The translations under genes were made by a program, and so were the position numbers. The notes beneath the pieces were generated by a model. The model was not told the origin of the DNA. It searched no databases and was given only the letters and a program-made list of their open reading frames with translations. Shown here one piece after another: positions 4,009 to 46,209 of a stretch of 47,846 bases of DNA; within the stretch, counting starts at the first letter, position 1; each line of letters opens with the position of its first letter. The stretch comes from an uncultured Deferribacteres bacterium (GTDB lineage: Bacteria > Zhuqueibacterota > Zhuqueibacteria > Zhuqueibacterales > Geothermadaptataceae), in assembly GCA_964014485.1 (NCBI GenBank), contig CAXHAT010000038.1, forward strand, positions 1 through 47,846, read 5' to 3'.

Positions 4009-5454
4009 ATGTTTGGACATCCTAGGGGATTGAGAACGCTTTTTTTTACCGAGCTGTGGGAACGGTTCAGCTATTATGGCATGAGAGGGCTGCTTGTGCT
4101 CTTTCTAACCGCTACGATTGAAAACGGCGGTTTCGGGCTTGATAATGATCGCGCCGGAGCAATTCTCGCGCTTTATCTCGCCTTTGTTTATCTTATGGCG
4201 CTGCCCGGCGGTTGGATCGCGGATCGTATTCTCGGTCAACGCGACGCCGTGTTCGTGGGCGGGATAATTATCGCCGCCGGGCATTTTTCCATGGCCATAC
4301 CCTTTGCGTCGACTTTCTATCTCGGCCTTGTTTTGATCGTTCTCGGCACCGGACTCTTGAAGCCAAATGTAAGCGCGATCGTCGGCGATTTATACCCTGA
4401 AGGCGGCGCGCGAAAAGACGCAGGGTTTTCGATTTTTTATATGGGGATAAACATCGGCGCTTTCCTCGGCCCGCTTGTCTGCGGATATCTCGGCGAGAAC
4501 ATCAACTGGCACCTTGGATTCAGTGCGGCTGGTATTGGCATGGTTTTGGGGCTGATTCAATATAGAGTCGGCCTGAAAGATATGGGCAATGCGGGTGAGC
4601 TTAGAGACAGAACCGACGCCGACAAGCAAACGGCAAAGTCGCAATTGTTTAAGGGACTAGGCGCCTTTGCGGCGTTGTTTGTCATCCTCTGGGGCGTAGA
4701 TTCGGCCGGTCTGATAAGCCTCTCGCTCGAAAATATTGCCCAGGGCACGGGGGTTGTTATTGTCGGAATTGCGGTGTTGTATTTTCTTTTCTTGTTGATC
4801 GCCGGCCAATACACGTCGCAAGAAAAAAAGCGCATTCTGGTTATCTTTTTCTTATTCATTGGTGCAGCGCTCTTCTGGTCTGGTTTTGAACAAGCGGCTT
4901 CGACGCTCAATTTGTTCGCTAAAGACAAAACAAACTTGAATATCGTCGGGTTCAACATGCCGGCGAGCTGGCTGCAATCTGTAAATGCTTTATTTATCAT
5001 TCTTCTTGCGCCCGTCTTCGGGATGATCTGGGTGTGGCTGGCCAATCGTGAGCCTTCGATTCCGCTCAAGTTTGCCTTGGGATTGCTTCAGCTTGGCGTC
5101 GGCTTTTTTGTTTTGGCCTGGGGCGCAAGTTACGCCGTCGACGGTTACTTGGTCAGCCCAATGTGGCTTGTCGTGACGTACTTCTTTCACACCACCGGCG
5201 AATTGTGTTTGAGCCCGGTTGGCTTAAGCAGCGTGACAAAATTGTCGCCAAGACCGCTTGTCGGCCAAATGATGGGTGTTTGGTTTATGGGTACTGCGCT
5301 GGGTAACCTCATCGCGGGACTAGCGACAGGCTTAATCGGCGACGTGTCCGACGTAGCGCTTTTTAATAATGTCGGTATGATCAGTTGCGTCGGCGGGCTT
5401 GCCTTTTTGTTCTTGGTTATCCCGTTGAAGAAGATGATTGGCCAAGTCAAGTAA
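4009..5454 (+). CDS. Proton-dependent oligopeptide transporter (POT/PTR, DtpT-like MFS)
   Basis: ExxERFxYY motif (ELWERFSYYG), GTGLLKPN, FYMGINIG and GELCLSPVG; GGAGG RBS. Confidence 0.95.
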   Translation: MFGHPRGLRTLFFTELWERFSYYGMRGLLVLFLTATIENGGFGLDNDRAGAILALYLAFVYLMALPGGWIADRILGQRDAVFVGGIIIAAGHFSMAIPFASTFYLGLVLIVLGTGLLKPNVSAIVGDLYPEGGARKDAGFSIFYMGINIGAFLGPLVCGYLGENINWHLGFSAAGIGMVLGLIQYRVGLKDMGNAGELRDRTDADKQTAKSQLFKGLGAFAALFVILWGVDSAGLISLSLENIAQGTGVVIVGIAVLYFLFLLIAGQYTSQEKKRILVIFFLFIGAALFWSGFEQAASTLNLFAKDKTNLNIVGFNMPASWLQSVNALFIILLAPVFGMIWVWLANREPSIPLKFALGLLQLGVGFFVLAWGASYAVDGYLVSPMWLVVTYFFHTTGELCLSPVGLSSVTKLSPRPLVGQMMGVWFMGTALGNLIAGLATGLIGDVSDVALFNNVGMISCVGGLAFLFLVIPLKKMIGQVK

Positions 5455-5496
5455 ACCAGGCATTCTTGCCGTTAAGTTTACCGCAATAGAATTGTG

Positions 5497-5532
5497 AGTC
5501 GTTGAGGCGCTTGAAGCGTCTCAACGATTTTT
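5497..5532 (+). terminator. Rho-independent terminator after the thrB-POT run
   Basis: Stem TCGTTGAGGCGCT / AGCGTCTCAACGA (one G-U pair) followed by a T run. Confidence 0.7.
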
Positions 5533-5668
5533 CCTTCCCGCTGTTTTTTCCAAAACCCTCCGTCGCTTCACAAAATCTCAATTTCATTTCACATCAAGGC
5601 TTGCGTGGTTTCAATAAGAAACTTTGTCCGTTTTAGCAGTGCCCGCTTTTGCGATTGACGAAAAGATG

Positions 5669-5681
5669 TAAGTCTTTAATT
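5669..5681 (-). promoter_or_regulatory. IHF-like binding site upstream of the sigma54 promoter
   Basis: Reverse complement AATTAAAGACTTA against consensus WATCAANNNNTTR has one mismatch. It sits in an AT-rich patch ~45 bp upstream of the -24 box. Confidence 0.45.
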
Positions 5682-5722
5682 TATTTAGCTCTAAGACAGG
5701 GCTGAGTTCTGGGATGCGTGCG

Positions 5723-5738
5723 TGGTACACGACTTGCT
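5723..5738 (+). promoter_or_regulatory. Sigma54 (RpoN) -24/-12 promoter
   Basis: TGGTACACGACTTGCT has GG-N10-GC spacing and closely matches TGGCAC-N5-TTGC. Confidence 0.75.
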
Positions 5739-5749
5739 TAAGTTGGAGC

Positions 5750-5873
5750 GTACGTAATTTGGTCGTGGCGGAATTTGGTGATTTCCCCTGATCTCCAATT
5801 CCGTTTTTAAACCGAGCTTTTAGTGTTCCGGTCCCTCCCCTGCCGGAACGCGCTCCTGGCTCGGTTTTTTTTT
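5750..5873 (+). ncRNA. Candidate sigma54-dependent small RNA with two C-rich hairpin loops
   Basis: Begins ~12 nt after the -12 box. Hairpin 5767-5805 has loop TTCCCCTG. Hairpin 5809-5867 has outer stem AAACCGAGC/GCTCGGTTT, inner stem GTGTTCCGG/CCGGAACGC and loop TCCCTCCCCTG. It ends in T9, and the track shows no ORF here. Confidence 0.6.
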
Positions 5874-5967
5874 GCTCTGCGCGGCTTTTTTAGTTTTTCA
5901 ATTTCCGCGGAGTGAGGGTAAGTAACTACCGATCACTTCATTTTCCTAAACGCGCGATACTTCCCAA

Positions 5968-7179
5968 ATGAAAAAATCCATTATTCAGCCCTCGCCGGAC
6001 GCATTTAATTTTGATCTCTCTCCGCATATTCTTGTCGTTGATGATGAAGAAGCCGTACGCCAAATTTGTCAAAAATGCCTTGAGCGTGAAGGATACGCAA
6101 TTGAACTGGCGCAAAACGGATTGGCCGCGTTGGAAAAGCTTCGTCAATTTGAAGATATTCAAATCGTAATGACGGATATGATGATGCCGGCAATGGGGGG
6201 CGTTGACCTGTTGGAAACGATAAAACGTGATTACCCGCACATCGAAGTGATTATGATGACGGGGAATGCGACGATTCAAAGCGCAATCGACGCCATGAAA
6301 AAAGGCGCTCAGGAGTTCATATTGAAACCCGCAAAACCTGAGCTCATTCTGAATGTGATCCGAAAGTGCATTGATAAAATTACCGCTAGCAAAACAATTG
6401 CGGAGTTGAGCGAAGCGTACAAGAAAACGAAACAGCTCGAAGCGATGAAAGACAAGTTTCTGGCGATTACTTCGCACGAGCTTAGAACGCCCGTCAATCA
6501 CTTGAAAAGCTTTGTCAGCGTATTAGATGAGAGCGCCGGGTTTGAAATTTGTCCAAAAGAACGTCGCGAGTACATGCGCGTCATCTCAAAATCAATTGAC
6601 GACCTGCAAGAAATCGTGACCAACATGTTTGACGTTCTCAGGGCCGAGAACGCGGCCATTCCCTTGCGCATCGACTCGTTGGACATTCATGAATTACTCA
6701 AAGAAATTTTTGATGAATACCGAATCGCTTCTCAGGATGATCGCAGAAACCAGACGATCACAATGGACTTGTCGGCCACAAACACAAAAATTGAAGCGGA
6801 TCGACTCAAGGTCAAAGGATTGATTTCACATTTAATCCAAAATGCAAAAAAATTCACGCCGGATTTTGGAAAGATCGCCTTACAAAGCCGCGACGACGGC
6901 GAGTTCATTGTTGTCGCGATCCAGGATAATGGCGTCGGGATTCCTGAAGATGAGCTTGGCAATGTTTTTAACGAATTCTATGAGGTCGGCCCGGTTCAAA
7001 AACATGGAACCAGCAAAACAAATTTTGGCGGCGGCGGGCTTGGATTGGGGCTTTCGCTCTCCCGTGCAATCGCAACTGCGCACGGCGGCGGTATTCGCGT
7101 AAAAAGCGAGGTGGGGAAGGGATCTGAGTTCATGGTTTATTTGCCGCAAAAACAGACAAACGAAACCAGCGCTATTTAA
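5968..7179 (+). CDS. Cytoplasmic hybrid response regulator-histidine kinase (REC-HisKA-HATPase)
   Basis: Receiver motifs ILVVDDE, TDMMMP and LKP; H-box SHELRTP; NAKKFT, DNGVGI and GLGLGL; no TM segment. Confidence 0.95.
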   Translation: MKKSIIQPSPDAFNFDLSPHILVVDDEEAVRQICQKCLEREGYAIELAQNGLAALEKLRQFEDIQIVMTDMMMPAMGGVDLLETIKRDYPHIEVIMMTGNATIQSAIDAMKKGAQEFILKPAKPELILNVIRKCIDKITASKTIAELSEAYKKTKQLEAMKDKFLAITSHELRTPVNHLKSFVSVLDESAGFEICPKERREYMRVISKSIDDLQEIVTNMFDVLRAENAAIPLRIDSLDIHELLKEIFDEYRIASQDDRRNQTITMDLSATNTKIEADRLKVKGLISHLIQNAKKFTPDFGKIALQSRDDGEFIVVAIQDNGVGIPEDELGNVFNEFYEVGPVQKHGTSKTNFGGGGLGLGLSLSRAIATAHGGGIRVKSEVGKGSEFMVYLPQKQTNETSAI

Positions 7180-9332
7180 AAATCGAGAGGGAGGCTCGCG
7201 CGGGCGTGCCAGTTGCGCCCAGGGGATGGTTCAAAAAAACGGGCGCCGAAAGCGTTGGGGACAATCGAAGCGTTGTAGCGGACGTCAAATAAGTTATTCA
7301 CCCCGAAATAAAAAGTCATTCTGAAATTCTGAAGCGCCTTCGAAAATCCGGCGTTGAGATTGACTAACGCATACCCGTCATTTATGAAAGCGTCGGAGCT
7401 TCCGCCGTCGCCGTTTAAGTCGTTGGCAAAATAACCGTCAACGAATTCTGCGTTAAGCTCCACAAAAACAGCCGTCAAGGCTTTATAATTGATCGCCGCG
7501 AAAAAACGATAAGACGGTACGCCTGGAAGTTTATTGTTTTTCAGTTGCTGCAACCCTTCGTTCCCTTCAATTTCATAATTTCGGAAGCGAAAATCCATCA
7601 GTGTAAATGCTGAAGTCAATCTGATGGATTTCTGAATATGCCAGCTCAAATCAGCCTCAAACCCTCGATTCCAAGCGGCGCCGGCGTTACGATAAAAGAT
7701 TTCTTCACTCTCCGGGTCTTGCACTTGAAACGGAATCAACATGTTTTCGACCGCCATCGTGAAAACCGCCGCATTGTATCGGACGTTTTTTTCCAGCCAA
7801 TCGCCTTTCCCTCCAATCTCAAGACTGCGAATATATTCAGGGTTTAAATTGTCGTTCAGCCCGCCTTCCTGATTGGGGCGATTCGTCAATTCTACTGTCG
7901 TCGGCGTTTGAAAAGCGCTTGAAAAATTGGCGTATAACGCAAAGAGCGACTTGGGGCGCCAGGTTATTCCAAGCATCGGACTGGGTTGATTCATTGAAAT
8001 ACTTTGAGATTCAGAGCCTGGTGCGAAGCTGTTTTCCACCTTGAAAGTAAAGCGGTCAAATCGGATTCCCGCCAGGTAGGAGATTTTTGGCGAAGGAGAA
8101 TATTCGAGTTCTGTAAAAACGCCGACGCCAAAGACTCTTTCTCTTTGGTTTAGAAGTGTTTCTCCAACCTGGACGTTTTCAATGACGTTTTGCGGAAGCA
8201 ATTCGCCAACCACGTCATCCGGCAAGCCGTCGTTTTCATTTTCCCGGCGGTCATCATTTTGGAATTCAAAATCGAGACCGGTTTTTAAAAAGAAAACCTG
8301 GCCATTTTTTTCGATCCGTCTGGTGTAAAGATTTCGAAAACCAAAAGCGTCGCGCTCCAAATCAATGATTCGCCCAGGGATTGGGTTGAAGAGTGAGCGA
8401 TTCGTAAAGAAAAAAGTCGAACGAAAGCGTCCTGCGCCGCTTGAACGATTTTCCAGAGTGAGACCGGCGTTTAATTGCTCGACAATTTTCCCGGCGCCCT
8501 GAGAGCGAACGAAAAATCGGGCGGTTTGAGGAGAGTCGGCGGCGTCTTGCTTGTTCAACGAGCTTGGATTTAAGAGGAACGGCGCATCCACAAATTGCAG
8601 CACGCCGGAAGCGCTCCAGGCGTTTGAAAATTTGATTTTTGATGTCGTATTGATTGAGTGAATCCGGCTGTCGCTGTGTTCTCGGAACCCGGAGACGTCT
8701 AATTTTCTTGCGCTTACGGATAGTTGTGCATTTTCATTTTGTACTCTTAGTTTGGCCGAAAATTCTTTAAGACCAAAGTCGCCAAGAGAGAAGGATGGCT
8801 CAAAGGTAACCTTGTTTTCCGCCTCGCTGAAAGCGCCGGACTCAATGAGAATGACGCCGCCTGCGGCATTGCCGTAAAGCGTGGAAGCCGGGCCGCGCAG
8901 AACTTCAATTCTTTCAGCGCCGTTTAAATCGAGATTGTTGAGTTGCGATTGCCCGTCCGCGAAAGTTAACGGGACGCCGTCTAACAAAACCTTCACGCCG
9001 CGCACGCCGAACGACGCTCGGGAGCCTATCCCGCGAATGCTAATGCGATCTCCCAGAGATAAATTTTGCCGATTGTTGACTGTTACGCCGGGAACGGCCT
9101 GTAACGCATTTTCCAATGAAAAACTGGCGCCTGTTTGGCGCAGGCGCTCGTTATCGATTAAGGAGACGGCGTATGGCGTTCGGAAGGCTGGCCTCTCGTC
9201 GCGCATGGCGGAGACGGCGATTGGTTGGACAAAATATTGCCGGAGGGAATCAGGCGCTTCATTTTGGGAAATGAGGTTGGTCGCCACAGAAGAAAATAAA
9301 ACGGCGGCGATAAGCAAAATTCTATTTTTCAT
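7176..9332 (-). CDS. TonB-dependent receptor, YncD/PqqU-like
   Basis: Signal peptide; plug NRQNLSLGDRISIRGIGSRASFGVRG...DGQSQ and ERIEVLRGPASTLYGNAAGGVI; C-terminal NNLFD...PGR and terminal Phe. Confidence 0.9.
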   Translation of the reverse strand: MKNRILLIAAVLFSSVATNLISQNEAPDSLRQYFVQPIAVSAMRDERPAFRTPYAVSLIDNERLRQTGASFSLENALQAVPGVTVNNRQNLSLGDRISIRGIGSRASFGVRGVKVLLDGVPLTFADGQSQLNNLDLNGAERIEVLRGPASTLYGNAAGGVILIESGAFSEAENKVTFEPSFSLGDFGLKEFSAKLRVQNENAQLSVSARKLDVSGFREHSDSRIHSINTTSKIKFSNAWSASGVLQFVDAPFLLNPSSLNKQDAADSPQTARFFVRSQGAGKIVEQLNAGLTLENRSSGAGRFRSTFFFTNRSLFNPIPGRIIDLERDAFGFRNLYTRRIEKNGQVFFLKTGLDFEFQNDDRRENENDGLPDDVVGELLPQNVIENVQVGETLLNQRERVFGVGVFTELEYSPSPKISYLAGIRFDRFTFKVENSFAPGSESQSISMNQPSPMLGITWRPKSLFALYANFSSAFQTPTTVELTNRPNQEGGLNDNLNPEYIRSLEIGGKGDWLEKNVRYNAAVFTMAVENMLIPFQVQDPESEEIFYRNAGAAWNRGFEADLSWHIQKSIRLTSAFTLMDFRFRNYEIEGNEGLQQLKNNKLPGVPSYRFFAAINYKALTAVFVELNAEFVDGYFANDLNGDGGSSDAFINDGYALVNLNAGFSKALQNFRMTFYFGVNNLFDVRYNASIVPNAFGARFFEPSPGRNWHARASLPLDF

Positions 9333-10636: not shown

Positions 10637-12715
10637 CTACTGAGGCGCGCGAAGTTGCCGAAGCATCGTTTTCGCGCGTTCATTGTTGGGGTCAATTGCC
10701 AGGATTTTTCGCAAGTATTCGATGGCTTCCGCATTCTTTCCTTGCAAAAATTTGAGATACGCCGAGGCGCCGAGTCCGGGCAAAAAAGAAGGGTTGAGAA
10801 CGAAAACTCTAGAAAAATGCTTGTCCGCTTCGGAATAATTCCCCGCTTGCATTGCCAGATTCCCCAGGTTAAAAAGGGCTCGAATATTGTCGGGGTTGTT
10901 GTGTAGGACTTCTTTAAATAAATTCTTCGCTGCTGAAGCTTTCTGCGATTTTTGAGCGTAAAGCTCGCCTAAACCTAACCTGGAATTCGCATAGCTCGGC
11001 TGAACGCGTTGCGCTGCTTCGTAATGTGAAATCGCCTTTCTTTCATCCCCCAATTTTGCATAAATATTTGCAAGGTTTGTTAACAAAACCGCATTGTCGG
11101 GATAGACGTCGAGCGCCTTTTCGTAAGCGATGACTGCTTCGGAATCATGTCCGAGTCGTTGCAGGAGCTGCCCGACTTGTTCGTGCGCGGATGGATTTTC
11201 AGGCTCAAGCCTTGCCACTATCCTGAATGTTTCCAATGCTTTTTCCAATTCACCTGCCGACAACAACGCAGCGCCAAAATGCAGCAAACCATTTGCGTTT
11301 TCAGGTGCGGATTGCAGCCCTTCACGCAATAGCGAAATTGCGATGTTCAGAAATTCGGGATTTCGATCATGCTTTTCAAAGTAGTTGTGATACGCAATTC
11401 CCAGACGGATTTTCGCGGCGTTGTCATTCTCTCCGAAGAAGCTTTTTAAGCTCGCTTTGCTTTGCAGCGTGTCAGAAGAAGCGTCGATGTTTTTTCGAAT
11501 CCAGTGATCAGTGAAATTGGCGTGGATCACATCTGAAGCCGCGCCTTGACGCATATGGCAAGCGACGCAATCGCTTTCAATGCTTCTGTGAGTTGCGTCG
11601 TTGACGATGGTCGCGAGTTTTTGCGGATCATGACATTTTTGGCACTGCTCGTTAAAATGTTTGCGCGACCGCCACTGCACCGGCTCGTGCGGATTGTGGC
11701 ATGTCAAACAGGTCAGCGCGCCATTGCTTTCTATGAAGCATTTGCTCGACGCAATGCGTTCGCCGTGGCTCGCGACGCGAAAATCACCTTGTTGCACTTC
11801 ATCGTGAAGAAACACCGAAATCACTTCCGACAACATCATCCCGGGTTTAAAATCTGCATTTTTCCTTCCGGTCCGGACGACGCGCACCTGTCCCTGCAAA
11901 TGACACTGATAACAAACATCCATTTGTAACGCGGCGCTTAAATGCTTCGGATTGACGATGGTGCTGTCGATGTTTCGGGCGGGATTTTGTTCGATCTTTT
12001 TGGCGTAATGCTTTTGAATGTGCAAATCGCCCGGGCCGTGGCAGCGCTCGCAACCGATCCCGTGCTGAATGTTTTCGTAACGATTTCCGGAAAATTCGAC
12101 GTACCCCGAATAGGAATTGTGGCAATTCATGCAGCCTTCAACCACCGGCCTGGAAAAACGCAGATTTTGTGAAGCGTATCCGGGGCTTAACGCCCACTTG
12201 GCTTGATCGCTGAACCAGGTCGCCGGCAGCTCGAAAAGCAAACCGTCGCCTTCTTGCCAAAGATAGGTTCGAGCATGATTACCGGAACCGACGGCATAAA
12301 CCGCTCTGCGGGTCAAGTCATGCTTACGTTCACCTCGCGCATTTAAGCGATACTCGTCTTGTTGGAGCTTGCCGTCTTCAAAAGTCATTTCATAATGAAA
12401 ATCTGACTTCGGATCATAAACGTGATTATTGGTCTCAAAGTCTTCGATGAGATTGTCTTCCGAGAGAGAGTAGAACGAGCGCCCCATGCCGGTTTGCAAA
12501 AATGTATTAAAGATGTCCTCGTGACAAACCGCACATTCGTCGTCGCCGACGTAAGCGGTTTCATTGTCGATGTTCAAGAACCCGGTTTTCGAGATTGGGA
12601 GGGTGGTTCGACCTGGCGGGCGCTCGCACCCGAGAGTTGCAAAGGCAATCAATGCAGATGCGAGGCGGAAGACGTTCGACAGGCGGCTGAGACGTTGGCT
12701 GGATAAAACGTTCAT
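10637..12715 (-). CDS. Multiheme c-type cytochrome lipoprotein with C-terminal TPR repeats
   Basis: Seven CxxCH motifs (CAVCH, CMNCH, CERCH, CYQCH, CLTCH, CQKCH, CVACH), lipobox TLG-C and several TPR helix pairs. The start may instead be TTG 12745. Confidence 0.88.
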   Translation of the reverse strand: MNVLSSQRLSRLSNVFRLASALIAFATLGCERPPGRTTLPISKTGFLNIDNETAYVGDDECAVCHEDIFNTFLQTGMGRSFYSLSEDNLIEDFETNNHVYDPKSDFHYEMTFEDGKLQQDEYRLNARGERKHDLTRRAVYAVGSGNHARTYLWQEGDGLLFELPATWFSDQAKWALSPGYASQNLRFSRPVVEGCMNCHNSYSGYVEFSGNRYENIQHGIGCERCHGPGDLHIQKHYAKKIEQNPARNIDSTIVNPKHLSAALQMDVCYQCHLQGQVRVVRTGRKNADFKPGMMLSEVISVFLHDEVQQGDFRVASHGERIASSKCFIESNGALTCLTCHNPHEPVQWRSRKHFNEQCQKCHDPQKLATIVNDATHRSIESDCVACHMRQGAASDVIHANFTDHWIRKNIDASSDTLQSKASLKSFFGENDNAAKIRLGIAYHNYFEKHDRNPEFLNIAISLLREGLQSAPENANGLLHFGAALLSAGELEKALETFRIVARLEPENPSAHEQVGQLLQRLGHDSEAVIAYEKALDVYPDNAVLLTNLANIYAKLGDERKAISHYEAAQRVQPSYANSRLGLGELYAQKSQKASAAKNLFKEVLHNNPDNIRALFNLGNLAMQAGNYSEADKHFSRVFVLNPSFLPGLGASAYLKFLQGKNAEAIEYLRKILAIDPNNERAKTMLRQLRAPQ

Positions 12716-12770
12716 GAAAAAGCCGAGAAGAAGGGTGGATAACAATGGAAAATTGTTGCGGGACGCTTTG

Positions 12771-15638: not shown

Positions 15639-15921
15639 TCTTGGCAAAACTCCTCAGGCTGTTGTCAAAAAGTTGAAAGAAGTTAAAGAACATTCTTTTG
15701 GAATGCAAGGCGGCGTTCTCTTTCGGTTTGGCGATTCTCTCGAATTTGCCTTCCGAGTTTGTTCGGGATTACATTTTTACGCTCCCTGAAAGGTTGCCGG
15801 GGAAGGCGTAAACAACTGGCTGCTAAAACATCGCAAAATTCTGTTTATATTAAGTTAGCGCTACTTTCTTGCACAGGATTTTGTCCTTGATTGTTTGGCG
15901 TTTTTCGGTTATTTTTGCCGA

Positions 15922-16530
15922 ATGTCCGAGAAAGAAACCCCTTCAAATACATCATCGCGCAAAAAAGACGACATGCCACTGGTGCGGCGTGCGTTAGCAG
16001 GAGATCAAAAAGCGTTCGCCGGCATTATGGAACGCTACGACCGTCAGCTCTACCACCTCATGTACAAAATGGTTCGGAGCAAAGAAGAGTCGGAAGATCT
16101 TGTCCAGGAAGCGTTTATCAAGGCCTTCAACGCGCTGCATACCTTCAACGATGACTATGCGTTTTCGACCTGGCTGTACAAAATTGCCGTAAACAATTGC
16201 ATCGACTTTTTGCGCAAAAAACGCCTGCAGACTTTTTCCTATGACAAGCCTGTTGCTGCAAAAGACGGGGAAATGCGCAGGGAATACCCTGATCCGGAAA
16301 GCGTAACGGATAAGGCGATGCTGGCTTCCGAAAAGACGGGCATTATCAACCACGCGATAGAAAACCTGCCTGAGAAATACAAAACCGCGATTGTTCTGCG
16401 CCATCACAAGGAATTTTCCTACGAAGAAATCGCCCAACATTTGAACCTGCCTCTGGGCACCGTCAAGGCCCGCATTTTTCGCGCCCGCGAAATGTTGAAA
16501 CGCAAACTCAAAGGAAAAATTCTGCCGTAA
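15922..16530 (+). CDS. ECF sigma-70 factor (SigW/RpoE-like)
   Basis: Region 2 EDLVQEAFIKAF...FSTWLYKIAVNNCIDFLRK; region 4 LPEKYK...SYEEIA...GTVKARIFRAR. Confidence 0.95.
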   Translation: MSEKETPSNTSSRKKDDMPLVRRALAGDQKAFAGIMERYDRQLYHLMYKMVRSKEESEDLVQEAFIKAFNALHTFNDDYAFSTWLYKIAVNNCIDFLRKKRLQTFSYDKPVAAKDGEMRREYPDPESVTDKAMLASEKTGIINHAIENLPEKYKTAIVLRHHKEFSYEEIAQHLNLPLGTVKARIFRAREMLKRKLKGKILP

Positions 16531-17809: not shown

Positions 17810-20800
17810 ATGAAAATGCGCCTAAGGACGGGCGTGCTCTATGCTGGGATTTCACTGCTTGCTGCAACGCAGTTGATCGCACGGGGCGCCTTGACGAATG
17901 TGACGCTGACGCCGTCAAACACGCAAGCCGGCGTTGGTACAATATACACGGTTTCTTTCACGACCGACGCCGCAGGAAACGGTTTGCCCGCAGACGGGAA
18001 GTTGGTTTTTCTTTTTCCGGCGGGATTCGACGTCTCCGGCGTTGAAATCGCAGCGAATACCGCAGGTTTGGACGGCGGCTACGCTTCGATCGTGTCCGCC
18101 GGGCAGACGCTGACTTTGACCCGGGACGGAACCGGCGCTGTTTTGCCGGCAGGCGCTTCTGCTACATTGAAAATAGCCACGGCAAACAATCCCGAGACGG
18201 CGGGCGGCGCTTACACCATTCGCCTGACAACCCAGGACGGCGCGGGAACAGTTCTTGACGGCCCGACGATTTCTTCCGCATTTTCTATTACGCCCGGCCC
18301 GCTCGATCATTTTCGGTTCGCGGCATTGGCCGACCAAACCGCGGGGCAAGCATTCAGCGTCACGGTTTTTTCCGAAGACGAATTTGACAACGCCGTCACT
18401 CACAGCGGAACAGTCACGCTCACCGACGATTCCAGCACGCTCACCGCCTCGCCGCTGATTTTTGTCAGCCAAACGAATCAGACAATCTCCGACGCGGCAA
18501 TTACCCTGGCGCAAACGAATAGCTTCCTCACCGCGACCGGCGACGGCAAAACCGGCGATTCCAATCTTTTCACCGTTACACCGGACACGCTGCACCACAT
18601 CGAAATTTTCACCGAACTCGGCGGCGTTGGCGAAGCCTTGCTCGACACAACCTTGACGGCGGACGAGATTCTCGTGCTAAGTTCGGCGGGCTTCGACTCC
18701 TTTAATAATTATATCGCAGACGTTCCGGTCAATTGGGAAGTCATCGGCGGAATTGGCTCGCTAAGTGCAACGACCGGCGATTCGATCACCACGTTTTTTG
18801 CCGACACGGTCGGTGTAGGCCAAATCACTTTTCAGCACGCGGCGCTTTCGCCCGACACCACCGGCTTCATCACCGTTACGCCCGGCGCGCCCTTGCAGGT
18901 AAAAATTTTGCGCGGCGCCAGCGGTGATTCAGCGGTTTACGTTCCGCTGACTTACGCGACGGGTCAGACGGACACGGTTCACGCCGCCAGCTTTGACGGC
19001 GACGGCAACTACATCGCCGACGAAATCGTCGATTGGCGCATCAGCGGCGGTATTGGTTCGCTCAATCCGGCGAATGGCGTGATGACGGTTTTTTCCGCGA
19101 CCACCCCCGGAACCGGACAAATCACTGCGGATCATTTTAGTCTGTTTGACGAAGTGACCGGGGCGATTACGGTCGGCGCCGGCGGTCTGGCTTACATCAA
19201 AATCGTCGAGGGACCGTTCGGCGATGGGCCGGAACTCGATGCGAAAAACTTAAGCGCGGACGAGACCGTCACTCTCCACGCCGCCGGTTATGACGCGAAT
19301 GATAATTATCTTGGTGACCAGATTGCATTTTGGTCTTCCACCGGCGGGCTGTCGCCTGTTGTTACGGACACGGCGGTTGCGATTAATTATAATCCGAAAA
19401 CAGCGCCGGTAACCGGCAGCTTTTTGGCGTTTCATCCCACCGCGACCGGCGATGCGACCGGTACGATCAGCATCGGCGTGGGGGCGGCGCATCATGTGAA
19501 AATTTTGAGCGGCGCCGCCGGAAACACCGGCGAAGTCGGCGCGGCTGGATTGACCACCGGCGAGACGCTGACCTTGCACGCGGCTTCTTTCGACGCGGAC
19601 GACAATTACATCGATGACGTCGCGGTGAATTGGCTTTTGAGCGGCGGCGTCGGATCGCTTTCAAGCGCTTCCGGAATTGCAACGATTTTAACCGCGACTT
19701 CCGCTGGAACCGGGCAGATTTCCACGCAGCACGGATCGCTGCTCGACGACGCGACCGGCACGATCACCGTCAATCCCGGCGCTCTGGCCTACGTTCGCAT
19801 CGTCGAAGGCCCGGCGGGTGACGGCGCGGAATTTACGACAAAATCCATGACGACCGACGAAACGCTGACCCTGCACGCCGCCGGTTACGACGCCAGCGAT
19901 AATTATCTCGGCGACCAAACCGTGATTTGGACGAGCACGGGAGCGCTCGCGCCTATTCTCAACGAATCCGGCGTTTCCGTCACTTTCCAACCGACGCAAG
20001 CGCCCGCGACGGGAACCATTTTAGCGACCCACGGGACGGCGACCGGCGATGAAACCGGCACGATTTCCGTCGGCGTTGGCGCGCCGCACCATCTTAAAAT
20101 TTTGGAAGGCGGCGGCGGGCAGACTCCCGAAGTGACGACCTCCGGCTTGACCGCGGGCGGCAAGCTAATCGTTCACGCGGCGAGTTTTGATGCGGCGGAC
20201 AATTACATCGGCGACGCCAGCGCTTCCTGGACGGTTTCCGGCGGTATTGGCACGCTCAATCCGACGACCGGCGTTTCAACCGAATTGACCGCGATCATGC
20301 CTGGCAGCGGCCAGATTTCCGCTTCCGACGGTCTGTTGCTTGGCGACGCGACCGGCGTGATCACCGTTTCCGTCGGGACGGTCGCCGAAATTCGCATCGT
20401 CGAAGGTATGAGCGGCGACGGGCTGGAATTGGGCAACGTCGCGATGACCGCCGATGACGTTCTGTTCGTCCACGCCGCGGGTTACGACGCTTTTGGAAAT
20501 TACGTCGGCGATCAAAACGTGACCTGGAGCGGCACGAATGATTTGGCCGGAATCATCACCGGCACAAGCACGAAAATCACTTTCAGCCCGACAACCGCGC
20601 CCGCAGTTGGCGCGATTTCGGCGGATCACCCGACCGCGACCGACGATGTCACCGGGACGATCACTGTCGGCGTCGGCGCTGAGCACCATGTCAAAGTGCT
20701 CACGGGCGCGAGCGGCGATACGCCGGAAGTGACGACGGTTGGTTTGACCACCGGCGGGACGCTGGAAGTCCACGCCGCCAGTTTTGACGCGGACGATAAT

Positions 20801-23800
20801 TACGTCACCGATATTTCGGTCGGCTGGAGCCTGAGCGGGGACATTGGATCGCTCGACACGGGCGTCGGCGTGACGACGACCTTGACGGCGGCGGCGGTTG
20901 GCACCGGGCAAATCAGCGCCGATCACCCCAGTCTTTTTGACGACGCTACCGGCGTGATCACGGTCAATGCCGGAACCCTCGCGTATGTTCGCATCGTCGA
21001 AGGGCCTTCCGGCGACGGTGCCGCGTTTGGCGCGCGCACTTTGACGACCGACGAGTCGATCACTCTGCACGCCGCCGGGTATGACGCCAGCGACAATTAT
21101 CTCGGCGACCAATCCGTGATCTGGACGGGAACGGACGGCTTGGCCGGAATCATTTCCGGCAGCGGCACGTCGATCACGTTCAATCCCAACCTTGCGCCAA
21201 ATTCGGGAACCATCGTTGCCGACCACGCGACGGCGACCGACGACGCGACCGGTCTGATTACAATTAACGTCGGCGCCGAGCATCATGTAAAAATTTTAAG
21301 CGACGCCAGCGGCGAAACCTCGGAAATCGGTTCCGCCGGATTGGTGACCGGTAACACGCTCACCGTCCATGCCGCGAGCTTTGACGCGGACAATAATTAT
21401 GTCCAGGACGTTTCCGTTAATTGGGCTTTGAGCGGCGGGATCGGGACGCTTTCCGAAACTTCCTCGATTTCCACCATTTTGACCGCGACCACCGCCGGAA
21501 CCGGTCAAATCACTGCGGATCACGCAACCTTGCTCGACGACGCCACCGGTACGATCACCGTGACGGCGGGCGCGCTCGATTACATTAAAATTGTTGCCGG
21601 GCTCTCCGGCGACGGCGCTGAATTCGACGCGGCGACATTAACGACGGATCAATCCCTGACTTTGCACGCGGCAGGCTACGACGCCAGCGACAATTATCTC
21701 GGTGATCAATCCGTAACCTGGACGGGAACCGGCGGTTTGGCCGGGATCATCTCCGGCGGCGGCACGTCAGTTATCTTCAATCCGAGTCTCGCGCCAAATT
21801 CGGGAACCATCGTCGCCGATCACGCGACGGCGACAGACGATACGACCGGCTTGATCACGATCAACGTCGGTGCGGAACACCACGTCAAGGTGCTCGACGG
21901 CGCCAGCGGCGAAACTTCGGAAGTGACAACGGTGGGCTTGACCACGGGCGGGACGCTGGAAGTCCACGCCGCGAGCTTTGACGCAGACAATAATTATGTG
22001 CAGGATGTCTCCGTCGATTGGACTTTGAGCGGCGGGATCGGAACGCTCTCGCAGGCCTCGGGGATTTCAACAATTTTGACGGCGACAACCGCCGGATCAG
22101 GCCAAATCACTGCTGACCACGCAACGCTTTTGGACGATGCGACCGGCGCGATCACCGTTTCAGCCGGAACGTTGGCTTACGTTAAAATCGTCGCTGGACC
22201 TTCGGGCGACGGCGCAGAGTTTGACGCAGCGACTCTGACGACCGACGAATCTTTGACCCTGCACGCCGCCGGATATGACGCCAGCGACAATTATCTCGGC
22301 GACCAAACCGTCGATTGGAGCGGGACGGACGGTTTGAACGGCTTAATTTCAGCAAACGGCACGTCGATCACTTTCAACCCAAGCCTCGCGCCAAATTCGG
22401 GAACGATCATCGCCGATCATGCGGCGGCGACCGACGACGCCACCGGCTTGATCACGATCAACGTCGGCGCCGAACATCACGTGAAAGTTTTGAGCGGCGC
22501 CAGCGGCGAAACGACGGAAGTTGGCGCATCGGGTTTGGTGACGGGCAACACGCTCACCGTCCACGCCGCCAGTTTTGACGCGGATAATAATTATGTGCAG
22601 GACGTCTCCGTGAACTGGACGTTGAGCGGCGGGATCGGAACGCTCTCAGATGCTTCCGCGATTTCAACAATTTTAACCGCGACGACGGCCGGAACCGGCC
22701 AAATCACGGCGGATCATCCGACTTTGCTCGACGACGCGACCGGCACGATCACCGTCACTGCCGGAACTTTGGCCTACATCAAAATCGTCGCCGGGCCTTC
22801 GGGCGACGGCGCTGAATTTGACGCGGCGACTTTGACAACCGATGAATCTTTGACGCTGCACGCCGCCGGATATGATGCGAGCGACAATTATCTCGGCGAT
22901 CAAACCGTCGATTGGAGCGGGACGGACGGCTTGAACGGTTTGATCTCGGAATCCGGCACGTCGATGACTTTCAATCCAAATCTTGCCCCGATTTCAGGAA
23001 CGATCATCGCCGACCACGCGTCGGCGTCGGACGACGTCACCGGCTTGATCACGATTAACGTCGGCGCGCCGCACCATGTGAAAGCGCTCACCGGCGCGGC
23101 GGGAAATACGCCGGAAGCGTTGACCGCCGGACTCGTCACGGGCAACACGCTCACGGTTCACGCCGCCAGTTTTGACGCGGACGACAATTACATCGATGAC
23201 GTGACCGTCGATTGGTTTTTGAGCGGCGGCATTGGCGTTTTGAGCGCGGCGAACGGCGTTTCAACGACGCTGACCGCGACCACCGCCGGATCTGGGCAAA
23301 TCACCGCTGACCACGCGACGCTTTTGGACGATGCGACGGGCGCGATCACCGTCACTGCCGGAACTTTGGCCTACATCAAAATCGTCGCCGGGCCTTCGGG
23401 CGACGGCGCGGAGTTTACTTCGACGACCTTGACGACAGACGATGCGCTCACTTTGCACGCCGCCGGTTATGACGCCAGCGACAATTATCTCGGCGATCAA
23501 ACCGTCGACTGGAGCGGGACGGACGGCTTGGCCGGACTGATTTCCGCGACCGGCACAACGATCACTTTCAATCCCAACCTCGCTCCGATTTCGGGAACCA
23601 TTTTCGCCGACCATTCGAGCGCGACGGACGACGCCACCGGCTTGATCACGATCAACGTCGGCGCGGAGCATCACGTGAAAGTGCTCGACGGCGTCGTCGG
23701 CGAAACGTCGGAAGTGACTGCGGTCGGCTTGACCACGGGCGGCACGCTGGAAGTTCACGCCGCGAGTTTTGACGCGGACAACAATTATGTGCAGGACGTC

Positions 23801-26800
23801 TCGGTAAATTGGTCTTTGAGCGGCGGGATTGGAACGTTATCGCAAGCATCCGGCGCGTCCACAATTTTAACGGCAACCACCGCCGGATCAGGCCAAATCA
23901 CTGCTGATCACGCAACGCTTTTGGACGATGCGACCGGCGCGATCACCGTTTCAGCCGGAACTTTGGCTTATGTCAAAATCGTCGCCGGACCATCGGGCGA
24001 CGGGGCGGAATTCGACACGGCGAATTTGACGACGGATCAATCTTTAACGCTGCACGCCGCCGGATACGACGCCAGCGACAATTATCTCGGCGATCAAACC
24101 GTCGATTGGAGCGGGACGGACGGCCTGGCCGGGCTGATTTCCGCGACCGGCACAACCATCACTTTCAATCCAAATCTTGCGCCGATTTCAGGAACCATCG
24201 TCGCTGATCACGCGACCGCGACCGACGACGCGACCGGCTTGATCACGATCAACGTCGGCGCGCCGCATCACGTCAAAGCGCTTTCGGGGCTGACGGGCGA
24301 AACCTCCGAGGTCGAGACTGCTGGACTGGTGACCGGCGGTACGCTGACTTTGCACGCCGCGAGTTTTGACGCCGACGATAATTACATCGCCGACGTGTCC
24401 GTCGATTGGCGCTTGAGTGGCAATATCGGAACGCTGTCGCAGGCTTCCGGGGTCTCCACCATTTTGACCGCCACCACCGCCGGAACCGGCCAGATCACGG
24501 CGGATCATGCAATTTTACTCGACGACGCGACCGGCACGATCACCGTGACAACGGGGGCGTTGGATTACATAAAAATCGTCGCCGGGCCTTCCGGCGACGG
24601 CGCTGAATTTGACGCCGTGACCTTGACGACGGATCAATCGCTGACTTTGCACGCGGCCGGATATGACGCGAACGATAATTATCTCGGCGACCAAACCGTT
24701 GATTGGGGCGGCACGGACGGTTTGAACGGCCTGATCTCCGAAACCGGCACGACGCTCGTTTTCAATCCAAACCTTGCGCCCGTTTCGGGAACGATTACAG
24801 CGGATCACGCCTCGGCGACGGACGACGCGACCAACTTGATCACCATCAACGTTGGCGCCGAGCATCATGTGAAAGTTTTGAGCGAGTCCAGCGGCGAAAC
24901 GACCGAAGTCGGCGCGGCGGGTTTGGTGACGGGCAACACGCTCACCGTCCACGCGGCGAGTTTTGACGCGGACGATAATTATGTCCAGGACGTGAGCGTG
25001 GATTGGGGCTTGAGCGGCGGCATTGGAACGCTTTCGCAAGCTTCCGGAATTTCAACAATTTTAACCGCGACCACCGGCGGAACCGGTCAAATCACCGCCG
25101 ATCACGCGGCGCTTTTGGACGACGCAACCGGCACGATCACCGTTACGACCGGAACGCTGGCTTACGTCAAGATTGTCGAGGGGCCGTTCGGCGACGGCCC
25201 GGAGTTTGGCGCGCGCACGCTGACGACGGACGAGTCGATCGCCCTGCACGCCGCCGGTTACGATGCGAATGACAATTATCTCGGCGATCAAACCGTGACT
25301 TGGGCGGGCACGGACGGTCTCGCCGGTCAGATTTCGGCGACCGGGCCGATGATCACTTTCGCGCCAGCGATTGCGCCGAGTTCCGGCACGATCAGCGTCA
25401 CTCACGCTTCCGCTTCCGGCGACGCAACCGGGCAAATTACGATCAACACCGGCGCTGCGCATCATGTCAAGGCGCTTTCCGGCGAGTCGGGCAACACTTC
25501 GGAAATGGCCAGCGCCGGACTTGTGACCGGCAACACCCTGAGCTTGCACGCCGCCAGTTTTGACGCGGACGACAATTACATCGAAGACGTTGTCGTCGAT
25601 TGGACTTTGAGCGGCGGCATTGGCGTGCTGTCGCAGAGCAGCGGCGTTTCGACCGTGCTCACCGCCACAACCGTCGGCGCGGGACAGATTACCGCCGACC
25701 ACGCTTCGCTTTTGGACGATGCGACGGGAATTATCACGGTGAACGCGGGCACTTTGGCCTACGTCAAAATCGTCGAAGGCCCGTCCGGCGACGGCGCGGA
25801 ATTGGACGCGAAAAACTTAACCGCCGATCAAACGTTGACTTTGCACGCCGCCGGGTATGACGCGAGCGACAATTATCTCGGCGACCAAACCGTGACCTGG
25901 GGTGCGACCGGCAGTCTCGCTCCGGCGCCGAGTTTCAGCGGCACGACGTTTACTTTTTCTCCAACAACGGCTCCGGCAAACGGGACGATCACAGCGATCC
26001 ACGCCTCGGTTCCCGGCGACGAGACCGGGACGATCAGCGTCGGCGTTGGCGCGGAGCATCACGTGTTAGTTTTACAGGGTGGGAACGGCGAAACCGCCGA
26101 AGTCAGCGCGACGGCTCTGAGCACCGGTGCGACGCTGACCGTTCACGCCGCCAGCTTTGACGCGGATCAAAATTACGTTCAGGACGTGTCCGTCAACTGG
26201 ATTTTGAGCAACAATATCGGCGCGCTTTCAACGGCTTCCGGCGTTTCGACGATTTTAACGACGACCACGCCCGGCAGCGCCGTACTCACCGCCGATCACG
26301 CCAGCCTGCTCGACGACGCCAGCGGAACGATCACCGTCAACACCGGCAATGTCGCCAGCATAAAAATTCGCACCGCGCCCAACAACGGCGGCGATGAAGT
26401 TGACGTTTTGAGCCTGACTACGGACGACGAAACGACGTTTTACGCCGCCGGTTACGACGGCTCGGACAATTATTTCGGCGACGTGAGCGTGACCTGGACG
26501 AACTCCGGCACGCTCGAGCCGACGGTCAACGCCAACGGATCGTCCTTCACTTTTTCACCAACCAAAGGCCTCGGCGACGGCAGCATTTCCGGGACAATCA
26601 TTGCGACTTATCCCGGGAATATTTCCGACGCCACCGGGACGATCGCGGTTTTCCCCGGCGCGCCCGTCGGCCAAATTACGCTGACCGCGAACCCTTCCGG
26701 TCTGCCTTCAGACGGCGCGAGTTTGTCGCAAATCACCAGCGATGTCATTCTAGACGCTGAGAACAATCCGGTCGGCGCGGGCAAATTGTTCAGCGTTACA

Positions 26801-29800
26801 ATCACGCCCGCGAATCTCGGCCAGATCGCCACGCCGGACGCTGATCCGGGAACCGCCGGTCATCAAATCGCAACGTTGGCGAACGGAACATTGGATTTTT
26901 CTTTTCAGGCGGGAACCTCGGGCGGTGTGGCAACGGTCAACGTCAGCGGCGGGCTGGCGGCGGGCGGCAACACGCAAATTTCTCTCGGCAGTTTGTCGAT
27001 TCTCTCGATTTCAGCGGCCAGCGAAAAGGTTTCGCAAGGGCAGACCGGCGTTTTGGTCAACATGACCGTGCAAAATCTCGCGGCCTCGCCGATCACGCAA
27101 TTGGCGGGCGCGTTAACGTTTACTGGTTCGATTGACCGCACCTCAGAATTTACCGTCACGCCAAAAGCCAACAACCCGACCGCGATTGCCGGCGGCGGCA
27201 CTGAAACTCTCGGTTTTTTTATCGACGTTTCGCCTTCTGCGGCGCTGGAAAACATCACCATCGACGGCTCGGCTTCCGGCAAAATCAACACAACCGACGT
27301 GGCAACGTCCGGCGCGGCCACCCCCGACGCCTGGGCGGTGCAGCGTCCGGCGCAGGTTGATATTCACAGCGTCATCACCTCCGCCGACACCGTGGTTCAG
27401 GGACAGCAAGGCTTGCAAGTACGGGCGCGCGTCGAAAACAATTTCGGTTTGAGCGACGTCGCGGATGCAATTGTAGACAGTGTGCGTCTGGTTTTTCGAC
27501 AAGGTCCGGTCGAGCGCACGGCGGAGTATGTGGTTGCGCCTTCGAGTGCGAATCCGACAATGGTCCCCGGCGGCGGCGCGGTTGATTTTAATTTCACTGT
27601 CAACGTTGGCCTGAGCGCGACTACCGGCTTGACTGTTCTCGACGCGGAAATTTACGCCCGCGACGCAAATTCCGATTTGACTAAAACAGATTTGAATGCG
27701 GCCACGCCCGACGGCTGGGAAGTGATCCCCGGTGACGCTTTTCAGATTGCCGCCATCACGCCGTCGCAAACAAGCGTGACGGAAAGCATGTTGAAATCGT
27801 GGCAAATCCAAATGACGCTCAACAACAGCGGCCCTTCCGCGATCACGCTCGATTTAAGCAAGCCGAAAACGTTCCTGCGTCTGCAAATTGGCGCTTCGGA
27901 CGTGACCGGGCAATACACGATCATTCAGCCGACGCAATTCGACGCAGGCGGAACCACGCTGGCGGCGAACAGCAACGGCGTTCTGACTTTCACCGTCACC
28001 AAAACCGGCGCATCGACGGGCGTCGCGACGATTCTCGGCTTTGCCGAAGGCACGGACACGGCGACCAGCCAGCCGATTTCCGACAACACGAACGACGGAG
28101 GCACCGGCGAAGTCAACGTGCAAACGCAGGGCGTTTTGAGCGTCACTTCGGTGCAGCCCTCGGAGCCGTTGGTGACGGCGAACCGCGATTTTGACTGGCG
28201 CGTGACCGCGCAGGTGACGAACACCGGCGGCAGCGCACTGGAATTAACGGAATCGCCTTCCGTCATTCTCATCGGCAGCAACGCCGGTTTTGCCTACGTG
28301 CAGCCGCGGTTTTTCACCAATGGCGACTCGGTTTTGGCGGCGAACGAGAGCAGGCAGTTTGAGATGATCGTCGATCAAACCGGTACGCAATTGGGCGATC
28401 TGCCGATTTCTCTGACGCTGAACGCGATGGAGCAAAACAGCGGGCGCGCGGTGTCATCGAACGCGGGAGCGGGGACGGTAAAAAATCAGAGTCAAGCGGC
28501 GCTGGTGATTCAAAACGTCTCGATTTCGGCGGAATCCGTGACGGCGGGGCAAACCGCGCCCTGGACCGCGACGGTTGTGGTTGAAAATACCGGCCAGAGC
28601 CAGGTCGATTTGCGCACCGACGCGGCGACCAACTTGCGTTTTCGCTTGAACGGCAATTTTCAGAACGATTACATCGTCGCGCTGGCCGAAGAAAACTGGC
28701 TCGGTTCGCGGACGAAACAGCTCGCCGGAAACAGCGTCGACAGTCTGCGATTTGAGATCACGCAAACCGGAGCCGGGACGGGATTCCCCGAACTTTGGGT
28801 GACGGCGGCAACCACGGAAACCAACAGCGGCGCCGAGGTTTCCGCCAACGACAACGGTTCGGCCACAGTTGAAGTGCAGGCCGGGCCAAATTTGAGTTAC
28901 ATCGCGGGCAGTTTGGCTCCGGCGATTGTCAACAACGGCTCGTTTTACGCTTTTGAAGTGCGCATCAACAATGGCGGGCAGGCGCTGGTCGCGCTCAATC
29001 CTGAAGCGACGACGCTGACTTTTTCCGACGGCGGCAACGCTTTTTCAGCGGCGCTGGACGCGAACCGCGCAACGGATTTGCCCGCCGGAGAAACCGTGCT
29101 GACTTTCCGTTCGACTCAAATTCCGCAAAACATGGCGGCGCAAAATTACGCGCCGCAGATTACGCTGAACGGCATGCAAAACGGCAACAATTTTAGTCAA
29201 ACTTTAACGACGGAAACCAACGCGCTGAACGTGAGCGCGCCGGCCAGCGTGCAGATTATCGCCCTGCGTCCGAGCCAGCCGACGGTCACGCGCCAGATGA
29301 CGAAGGACTGGTTTTTGACCTTGATCGTGCGCAACAACGGCGGCGCGGAGGTGGCGCTTGACAGTCTTGACCTCGTGTTGCTCAATGGCGGCAACGTCAC
29401 GCCGGAATACACGCTTTCACTTCCCGCGGCGTTTTTAGGCTCCGGCTCGACGCTGCTCGGCGGCGGTCAAACGGATTCTCTGCGTTTCGATATTCTCGAC
29501 ACCGGGATCAAAACCGGGGCGACGACGGCGCAGGCCAAGCTCTGGGTCATCGATCAGTCCAACCAGCAGACGATTTTTGCGCAAACCGAGGGCGGCGGCG
29601 GTTTTCAGGTGCAGTCTCCAGCCACGCTCGAAATCGTCGATATTTCCACTTCGCAGGCGCGCGCGACGCAAAATCAGGCGCAAGCCTGGAACGTGGACGT
29701 GCTCGTGCGCAACAATGGCGAGAGCAGTCTCGATCTTAATTTTGACGCTGATTCTTCCGGCGTGAATTTTTCGCTCGATTCCGGCGATTATCAGATTTCA

Positions 29801-33807: not shown

Positions 33808-33861
33808 CCTGGAATCAATGAATAGTTTTCAGTAAAAAATCAGAAAAATGAAGAACAAAAC

Positions 33862-33945
33862 AGCCCCAAAGGGGCGGAATGTAATAGCGAAGGGCGAAGC
33901 CCTGGTGCAGAACCGCCCCGTTTTCCCCAAAGCCCTGAAAGGGCG
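33862..33945. repeat. REP-like triple-hairpin element, family C
   Basis: GCCCC-AAA-GGGGC, AGGGC-GAA-GCCCT and GCCCT-GAA-AGGGC hairpins within 84 bp. Only one copy in the window. Confidence 0.6.
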
Positions 33946-33964
33946 GAAAAAAGATCGCCGACAT

Positions 33965-34096
33965 CTCATTAGCACCGGGCTTCAGCCCGGTGGTGAGCGC
34001 GAGTTTTCTTCTTTTTCTCCCATCGCGTTAACGCGATGGGAGAAAAAGAGGGATGCGTCCGTCAAAGTCCCCGCGCTGAAGCACGGGGCTAATGAG
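33965..34096. repeat. REPIN-like element, family A, enclosing a perfect 40-bp palindrome
   Basis: CTCATTAG-CACCGGGC-TTCA-GCCCGGTG ... CCCCGCGC-TGAA-GCACGGGG-CTAATGAG; 34010-34049 equals its own reverse complement. Confidence 0.85.
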
Positions 34097-34120
34097 AAAG
34101 TTGGACTCTCAGCACGCTTT

Positions 34121-45869: not shown

Positions 45870-46042
45870 AATATTGTCCTTTCATTCGTAAAGTGATCCG
45901 TCACCCTTGGTTCATCAGTATTTCTCTTTTTTACATTGATGTAGCTGATGTTACGCGCCAGCTTCATAATATAGCAACCTTTTATCAAAGTCATTCGGCG
46001 GCGGCGTCCTACCGCCAACCTAATTTCGAGACGCCCAGAATT

Positions 46043-46134
46043 CTCGTTCCCAATCTCGGGATTGGGAACGCAATTGCACTCGAAGCTCTAGTTTTGCGCC
46101 CATTTTCATTCCCAAACCGGAGTTTGGGAACGAG
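46043..46134. repeat. Palindromic REP/MITE-like element, family B
   Basis: CTCGTTCCCAATCTCGGGATTGGGAACG ... TTCCCAAACCGGAGTTTGGGAACGAG: two hairpins and inverted termini. Confidence 0.8.
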
Positions 46135-46209
46135 CCGTAATGAGATGCTGTTTTTGGTTGAGTCTCGGAAATGCTTTATTGCGCGTAACATCAGTCATGT
46201 AGAGAAGTT

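Follow-up and report, generated by a model that had tools for sequence, protein, structure and literature searches.

A conserved RNA element with C-rich loops and a sigma-54 type promoter near a hybrid kinase gene in KSB1-like bacteria

In the 47,846-nt stretch of DNA analysed here (the window), the gene for a POT/PTR2 peptide transporter (4009-5454) is separated from that for a REC-HisKA-HATPase hybrid kinase (5968-7179) by an intergenic gap of 513 bp (5455-5967), and the question raised by this locus is whether the gap holds a free-standing RNA gene or a leader of the kinase gene. An unannotated, sigma-54-dependent sRNA candidate had been proposed there (the original prediction), and its promoter box, C4U loops, fold and T9 run were all found again in a related genome, which supports the proposal. 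The relatives of the kinase, where named, belong to metagenome-assembled genomes (MAGs) of candidate division KSB1 and Calditrichaeota, the best non-self match being 55% identical, so the window belongs to a sparsely sampled member of this group. The gap had been described as about 510 bp long and as following a terminator, and a terminator-like inverted repeat was indeed present on the transporter side, with 14-nt arms (5499-5512/5514-5527) that are 93% complementary and are followed by TTTTT. No ORF of 40 or more amino acids was found between 5640 and 5937.

Promoter region and predicted fold of the RNA

A sigma-54 type -24/-12 promoter, TGGTACACGACTTGCT, is located on the forward strand at 5723-5738, with its GG at 5724-5725 and its GC at 5736-5737. 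It is the sole match to TGGYAYN5TTGCW in the window, but such a word is not significant taken alone, with 0.18 matches expected and one or more found in 17 of 100 shuffled sequences. Compared with the consensus TGGCAC-N5-TTGCW, which was used as the yardstick, the box departs at one position. Words with two mismatches were rarer in the window than expected by chance (10 found against 23.9). A second sigma-54-like word of this class, at 46063-46078, was rejected as it sits inside a hairpin repeat. The repeat belongs to a pair of similar hairpins, GTTCCCAATC..GATTGGGAAC and TTCCCAAAC..GTTTGGGAAC, which occupy 46040-46135 within a 1-kb gap.

The palindrome GGTTTCAATAAGAAAC (5607-5622, forward strand) begins a conserved upstream region and is a candidate UAS, at which a sigma-54 activator may bind; such sites are expected some 80-150 bp ahead of the promoter. 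It is 115 nt upstream of the TGG of the -24 element and occurs nowhere else in the window. The AT-rich stretch between palindrome and promoter contains the IHF-like site AATTAAAGACTTA (5669-5681, reverse strand). This site, part of the original prediction, is present with one mismatch to the consensus WATCAANNNNTTR, but one-mismatch matches are common (59 in the window, around 0.12 per 100 nt), so it counts as weak evidence. Neither rpoN nor a gene for a sigma-54 activator was found within the 47.8-kb window; no protein with a GAFTGA motif was detected in it, and a scan of 20 ORFs revealed no Sigma54 domain.

The predicted transcript start, placed near 5749 by counting 12 nt from the C of the -12 element, coincides with a conserved single-stranded 5' block, GCGTACGTAAT(T)TG (5748-5761, forward strand). 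Two stem-loops follow on the same strand. The first (SL1, 5767-5805) exposes an apical UCCCCU at 5784-5789, contained in the larger motif UUUCCCCUGAUC. The second (SL2, 5809-5867) is a long terminator hairpin with the apical loop CCCUCCCCU at 5833-5841 and stems formed by an inverted repeat, the outer one by AAACCGAGC and GCTCGGTTT and the inner one by 10 pairs. A run of nine T (5865-5873, forward strand) provides the intrinsic termination site, for which a 3' end at 5868-5873 is expected. The two stem-loops, the TCCCCTG in both of their loops and the T9 run after them were thus all found where they had been predicted.

The RNA of about 122 nt delimited in this way (5749-5872) has a minimum free energy (MFE) of -48.6 kcal/mol, compared to -29.0 +/- 3.3 kcal/mol for dinucleotide shuffles (z -5.93; none of 200 shuffles as good). 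A simple promoter and terminator scan of 5300-6100 flagged no terminator, because its rule requires a loop of 3-8 nt that neither hairpin has.

The element was also compared with known RNA families. At the gathering threshold, Rfam 15 gave no match in the whole window, so that the family check suggested together with the original prediction returned no known family. An E-value scan of 5400-6050 yielded only sub-threshold chance matches, the best of them on the element being FsrA with 19 bits against a gathering threshold of 80 (E 0.2).

A homologue in a KSB1 genome and its neighbourhood

Loci for comparison were collected by a profile search of genome contigs with an alignment of 46 relatives of the REC-kinase. 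At least 606 stretches matched, and 77 loci were kept, mostly paralogs from other phyla. Among the matches listed, only two kinases looked orthologous, those of L001 (50% identity; contig JAUZRQ010000042.1 of a KSB1 MAG) and of L002 (46%). A covariance model based on the single window sequence (positions 5745-5875), without the promoter, was then run on both strands of the 77 loci (1,261,809 bases). It gave a single match, at L001 5671-5805, with 40.4 bits and an E-value of 4.9e-10, the E-values of this model being rough owing to a shortened calibration. The L001 copy precedes the kinase ortholog by 4.2 kb and shares its strand. In the window, there was no second copy, the next best match with filters off scoring 7.8 bits (E 0.93).

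A two-sequence model run over the same 77 loci recovered L001 only. With filters off on six of them (L002, L038, L058, L060, L077 and L008), the best E-value was 0.38, which is not credible; L002 showed no RNA element, its best match having an E-value of 3. The DNA directly upstream of the kinase gene in L001, L002 and L003 likewise contained no such element. No Rfam family matched the L001 copy at E-values up to 1.

The sigma-54 box and the palindrome were not included in the first model, yet both are conserved in L001. The L001 box, TGGCACACGAGTTGCA (5644-5659), is a perfect consensus (TGGCAC-N5-TTGCA) and is identical to the window box at 13 of 16 positions. As the model began after the box, finding the box in L001 does not depend on the model match, and the GG/GC spacing is correct in both boxes, as had been claimed for the window. 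The L001 palindrome GGTTTCAAAATGAAAC (GGTTTCA-N4-GAAAC; 5532-5547) is the sole site of its kind in that locus and lies about 111-112 nt before the TGG; 14 of 18 aligned columns are identical between the two palindromes, compared with 38 of 111 in the adjoining spacer on the promoter side. A one-mismatch IHF-like site also occurs in L001 (5573-5585), at a distance from the promoter that differs from that in the window.

Within the transcribed part, the 5' block is identical in 13 of 14 aligned columns, including 11 consecutive bases, and is unpaired or weakly paired in the MFE folds of both RNAs, which makes it a possible second seed. Identity amounts to 23 of 39 columns in SL1 and 30 of 65 in SL2, rises to 11 of 11 across the T9 run and the adjoining GC, and is 7 of 25 directly downstream. 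The L001 loops (UAACUCCCCUAAUC in SL1 and UAAUCCCCCUAAUC in SL2) both contain C4U, the T9 run is present too, and when folded separately the L001 RNA also forms these two hairpins (z -5.06; none of 200 shuffles as good). In the two-sequence alignment, which was fitted by the model, 94.2% of 69 cells were paired and five pairs were changed on both sides, two of these compensatory changes being in the SL1 helix and three in the inner helix of SL2, while the outer SL2 helix was 100% paired. Slid controls gave 32-46% paired cells and 0-1 doubly changed pairs. The observed covariation values were reached in 13 of 500 shuffles. RNAalifold independently predicted the same two hairpins, with 27 pairs and five compensatory changes. 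As the RNA family has two members, this covariation carries little statistical weight; it supports the predicted fold but is not a statistical proof of it.

The possibility that the RNA region hides a small protein was discarded, the frames in the window being short, different from those of L001 and not conserved. The element is a noncoding unit with its own promoter and an intrinsic T9 terminator, both conserved in L001. Conservation of the loops and the promoter in relatives had been set beforehand as a test, and it was passed in one relative, L001. Palindrome, box, 5' block, two CCCCU hairpins and terminator all recur in a KSB1 genome in which the kinase ortholog is only 50% identical; by sequence comparison, the predicted RNA element is confirmed as conserved. 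It is this homologue, and not the window alone, that takes the element beyond chance.

The genes around the RNA differ between the loci. In L001, the RNA is preceded by genes for a SpoIIE-GAF protein, an RsbW-like kinase, a STAS protein, MlaE/F/D and an auxiliary lipoprotein, in this order, and after about 800 nt it is followed by genes for SLT, a GAF-HisKA sensor, the REC-kinase and a REC-GAF-HD protein. The gene order is the same in L002, where the genes for the auxiliary lipoprotein and SLT abut, leaving no gap for an RNA; the L001 RNA together with the stretch of about 800 nt looks like an insertion relative to L002. This stretch (L001 5806-6600) contains no convincing ORF; none of its frames matched Pfam, and it gave no match to Rfam either.

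The kinase gene is near the RNA in both the window and L001, and it is the only protein-coding feature common to the two loci, apart from a SpoIIE-domain paralog about 30 kb away in the window. This linkage in both genomes suggests, but is no proof of, a functional connection between the RNA and the kinase. The same contig of L001 also carries a gene for a sigma-54 activator (20142-21353; Sigma54_activat, 246 bits, plus HTH_8) that lacks an N-terminal regulatory domain. It is the nearest one to the RNA, at about 14 kb, and shows that sigma-54 machinery exists in the relative with the RNA.

In L001 (7865-11197) and L002 (about 6781-8755), the REC-HisKA-HATPase gene lies directly 3' of a GAF+HisKA sensor gene without HATPase, and the pair resembles one kinase divided between two genes; a REC-GAF-HD gene follows directly after the REC-kinase in both. 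The window copy of the kinase gene stands alone, without the sensor gene.

Loop motif, candidate targets and competing explanations

The loops had been described as C-rich and similar to an anti-Shine-Dalgarno sequence. The first half of this description holds, as both hairpins expose a C run at the apex and CCCCU is present in all four loops of the window and L001. It is unpaired in the MFE folds of both RNAs and in the fold of the window sequence extended to 5749-5990. The second half applies to one loop of the four, since the anti-Shine-Dalgarno word CCUCC was found in window SL2 only. Binding to G runs therefore fits the loops better than mimicry of the anti-Shine-Dalgarno sequence.

Shine-Dalgarno words (GGAG, GAGG or AGGA) within 20 nt of the start were found in 10 of 22 window genes, or about half, compared to 6.7% of random 17-mers, so G-rich ribosome-binding sites exist as possible targets. 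GGGG was not enriched at start regions: 2 of 22 contain it in the window and 1 of 15 in L001, and about 7% of random 60-mers do so. The sole GGGG start region in L001, with GGGGAGG at -12, is that of SLT, the first gene past the RNA, and its duplex scores were unremarkable. When duplex energies were calculated for the loops only, the start region of the POT transporter, which has GGAGGG at -13 and UAGGGGA at +14, ranked first of 22 with either loop, which corresponds to roughly the 3.5% level in random windows. With full-length cofolding, it came third (-6.5 kcal/mol against a background of -4.9 +/- 2.5), and gene 41289 led via the 5' block with -12.1 kcal/mol, a value equalled or surpassed in 3 of 392 random windows. 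The two kinds of target prediction within the window thus disagree.

Purine-rich G words are scarce in the window and L001. Both window strands together contain AGGGG 21 times, and GGAG, GAGG or AGGA occur in the above small share of random 17-mers, which is below the expectation at 50% G+C. The scarcity could reflect avoidance of internal sites resembling Shine-Dalgarno sequences or sRNA targets.

The explanation that we favour, at slightly better than an even chance, is a free-standing gene for an activator-dependent sigma-54 sRNA of about 122 nt, the C-rich loops of which, and perhaps its 5' block, pair with G-rich ribosome-binding regions. A predicted enhancer-binding protein at the palindrome would activate the sigma-54 RNA polymerase, giving a transcript that begins close to 5749 and ends within the T9 run. 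Through its C-rich loops, and perhaps through the 5' block too, this RNA would pair with G-rich sequence in or beside ribosome-binding sites and may block the translation of several mRNAs, as experiments have shown for sX13 and 6C. From its loose linkage to the REC-HisKA-HATPase gene in both genomes, the RNA might be the noncoding output of the signalling pathway of this kinase. In the window, the kinase gene could in addition be supplied by transcripts that pass the terminator.

The original prediction had offered a second reading, an attenuator leader for the REC-kinase in which GAGUGAGGG pairs with a loop. In general form, the sigma-54 promoter would serve the kinase gene and the terminator hairpin would gate read-through into it, perhaps by pairing of a loop with a downstream G-rich segment. 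The spacing in the window suits such a leader, as only 94 nt lie between the T run and the start codon of the kinase gene and the simple scan of 5300-6100 detected no sigma-70-like promoter. A G-rich segment on the same strand past the terminator is also available in both loci (GGAGTGAGGG near 5907-5917 in the window; TAGGGGA at L001 5910). However, the sequence past the terminator is unconserved, whereas the T9 terminator itself is perfect and conserved, and the fold of 5749-5990 showed no antiterminator pairing: it keeps both hairpins with their loops free, and GAGUGAGGG pairs locally instead of with a loop. In L001, moreover, two genes (SLT and GAF-HisKA) lie between the RNA and the kinase ortholog, the element is missing directly 5' of the kinase gene in L001 and L002, and L002 lacks it altogether. 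With 4.2 kb in between in L001 and no copy in L002, the RNA does not qualify as a leader dedicated to this gene, and we regard the cis-acting reading as unlikely.

The CsrB and RsmY RNAs titrate CsrA, and the two loops could similarly serve as a decoy for a dimeric or multi-domain RNA-binding protein. The loop motif of 9 nt is a near-exact repeat (CCCCUAAUC in both L001 loops, CCCCUGAUC in window SL1) and longer than pairing with a G run needs, and G-rich start regions are enriched in neither locus, both of which would suit protein binding. Nevertheless, window SL2 lacks the AUC part of the motif (CCCCUGCC) and a candidate binding protein is encoded beside neither copy. Known C-rich-loop sRNAs act by base pairing (PMC3771888, PMC6486639), and the decoy is in our judgement improbable. 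Equally doubtful is a wider role, beyond that of an ordinary riboregulator with one target, as a global modulator switched by sigma-54 in a lineage with Shine-Dalgarno sites in about half of its genes only. The near-identical CCCCU[A/G]AUC loops would then compete with the ribosome for the G-rich subset of starts or sequester a poly-C-binding protein. If true, the RNA would in either case be the noncoding output of the partner-switching/REC-kinase cluster that it accompanies in the two KSB1-like genomes, which are distant from each other. That a promoter-like word and terminator hairpins merely coincide, without any RNA gene, would fit the frequency of the sigma-54 word in shuffled sequence given above, but the whole arrangement recurs at 50% protein identity while its flanks are randomised. 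The model match in L001, with the independent promoter and palindrome, excludes chance, to which we leave a minimal probability.

Relation to known small RNAs and other features of the window

The preferred reading, a free-standing sigma-54 sRNA gene, has precedents. Qrr, GlmY and CrcZ are sigma-54-dependent sRNAs, and their seeds, like those of NrsZ, differ from the C4U loop chemistry. NrsZ of Pseudomonas is described as sigma-54 dependent (PMC9731577). Like the gene proposed here, all four are free-standing sRNA genes with -24/-12 promoters and an enhancer-binding protein. They are often found beside genes of the controlling pathway, whereas the window RNA has no adjacent activator gene and the nearest one in L001 is that at 14 kb; none of them matched the window RNA in Rfam.

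In Firmicutes, the C-rich (UCCC/CCCC) loops of RsaE/RoxS, FsrA and RNAIII pair with Shine-Dalgarno regions. These RNAs differ from the window RNA by their sigma-A type promoters and their lineage, and FsrA is the only one to match it, below threshold. The promoter of the actinobacterial 6C RNA is reportedly SigA/SigB-dependent in Corynebacterium (PMC5014011). As the window RNA does, 6C has two C-rich loops; those of 6C bind several mRNAs directly, and G-C pairing between single-stranded regions is considered sufficient without a chaperone (PMC6486639). The window RNA is unmatched to any Rfam model, 6C included if Rfam holds 6C. For sX13 of Xanthomonas campestris pv. vesicatoria, repression requires both the 4C loop motifs of the RNA and 4G motifs near the start of the mRNAs (PMC3771888); this RNA shares stable stems and apical C-rich loops with the window RNA and acts without Hfq. 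It differs in having three loops, in not being reported there as sigma-54 dependent, in coming from a different phylum and in showing no sequence or model similarity, as no Rfam family passed its threshold on the window RNA; the targets of the window RNA are only predicted. The window RNA and its L001 homologue look like the first two members of an sRNA family that had not been described before, of an already known kind.

The KSB1 and Calditrichota lineages are known almost only from metagenomes. In the literature searched, no regulatory RNA was found described for KSB1/Calditrichota-like bacteria, and no paper was found on rpoN in KSB1 or on sigma-54 in Caldithrix. With its recognisable promoter, putative activator site and distinct seed motif, the sRNA would offer a first handle on RNA regulation in KSB1-like bacteria and a marker for their sigma-54 regulon, and its model can be searched in other genomes. 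It would add another independent case of C-rich loops directed at G-rich start sites, a solution present in Xanthomonas, Actinobacteria and Firmicutes, and leaves the thinking on how sRNAs work unchanged.

Elsewhere in the window, an ORF at 10637-12745 (reverse strand) joins multihaem cytochrome c motifs (Cytochrome_C554, MtrC/MtrF-like, paired CXXCH) to a long TPR region. Positions 17810-33712 form a single ORF of 5300 amino acids, with a G+C content of 0.57-0.61 compared to about 0.50 in the rest of the window. Big_1 and CARDB were its only matches, and its product is probably a giant surface protein. It is flanked by a gene for an ECF sigma factor upstream (15895-16530) and by a PorV-like/TPR gene downstream (33848-36031).
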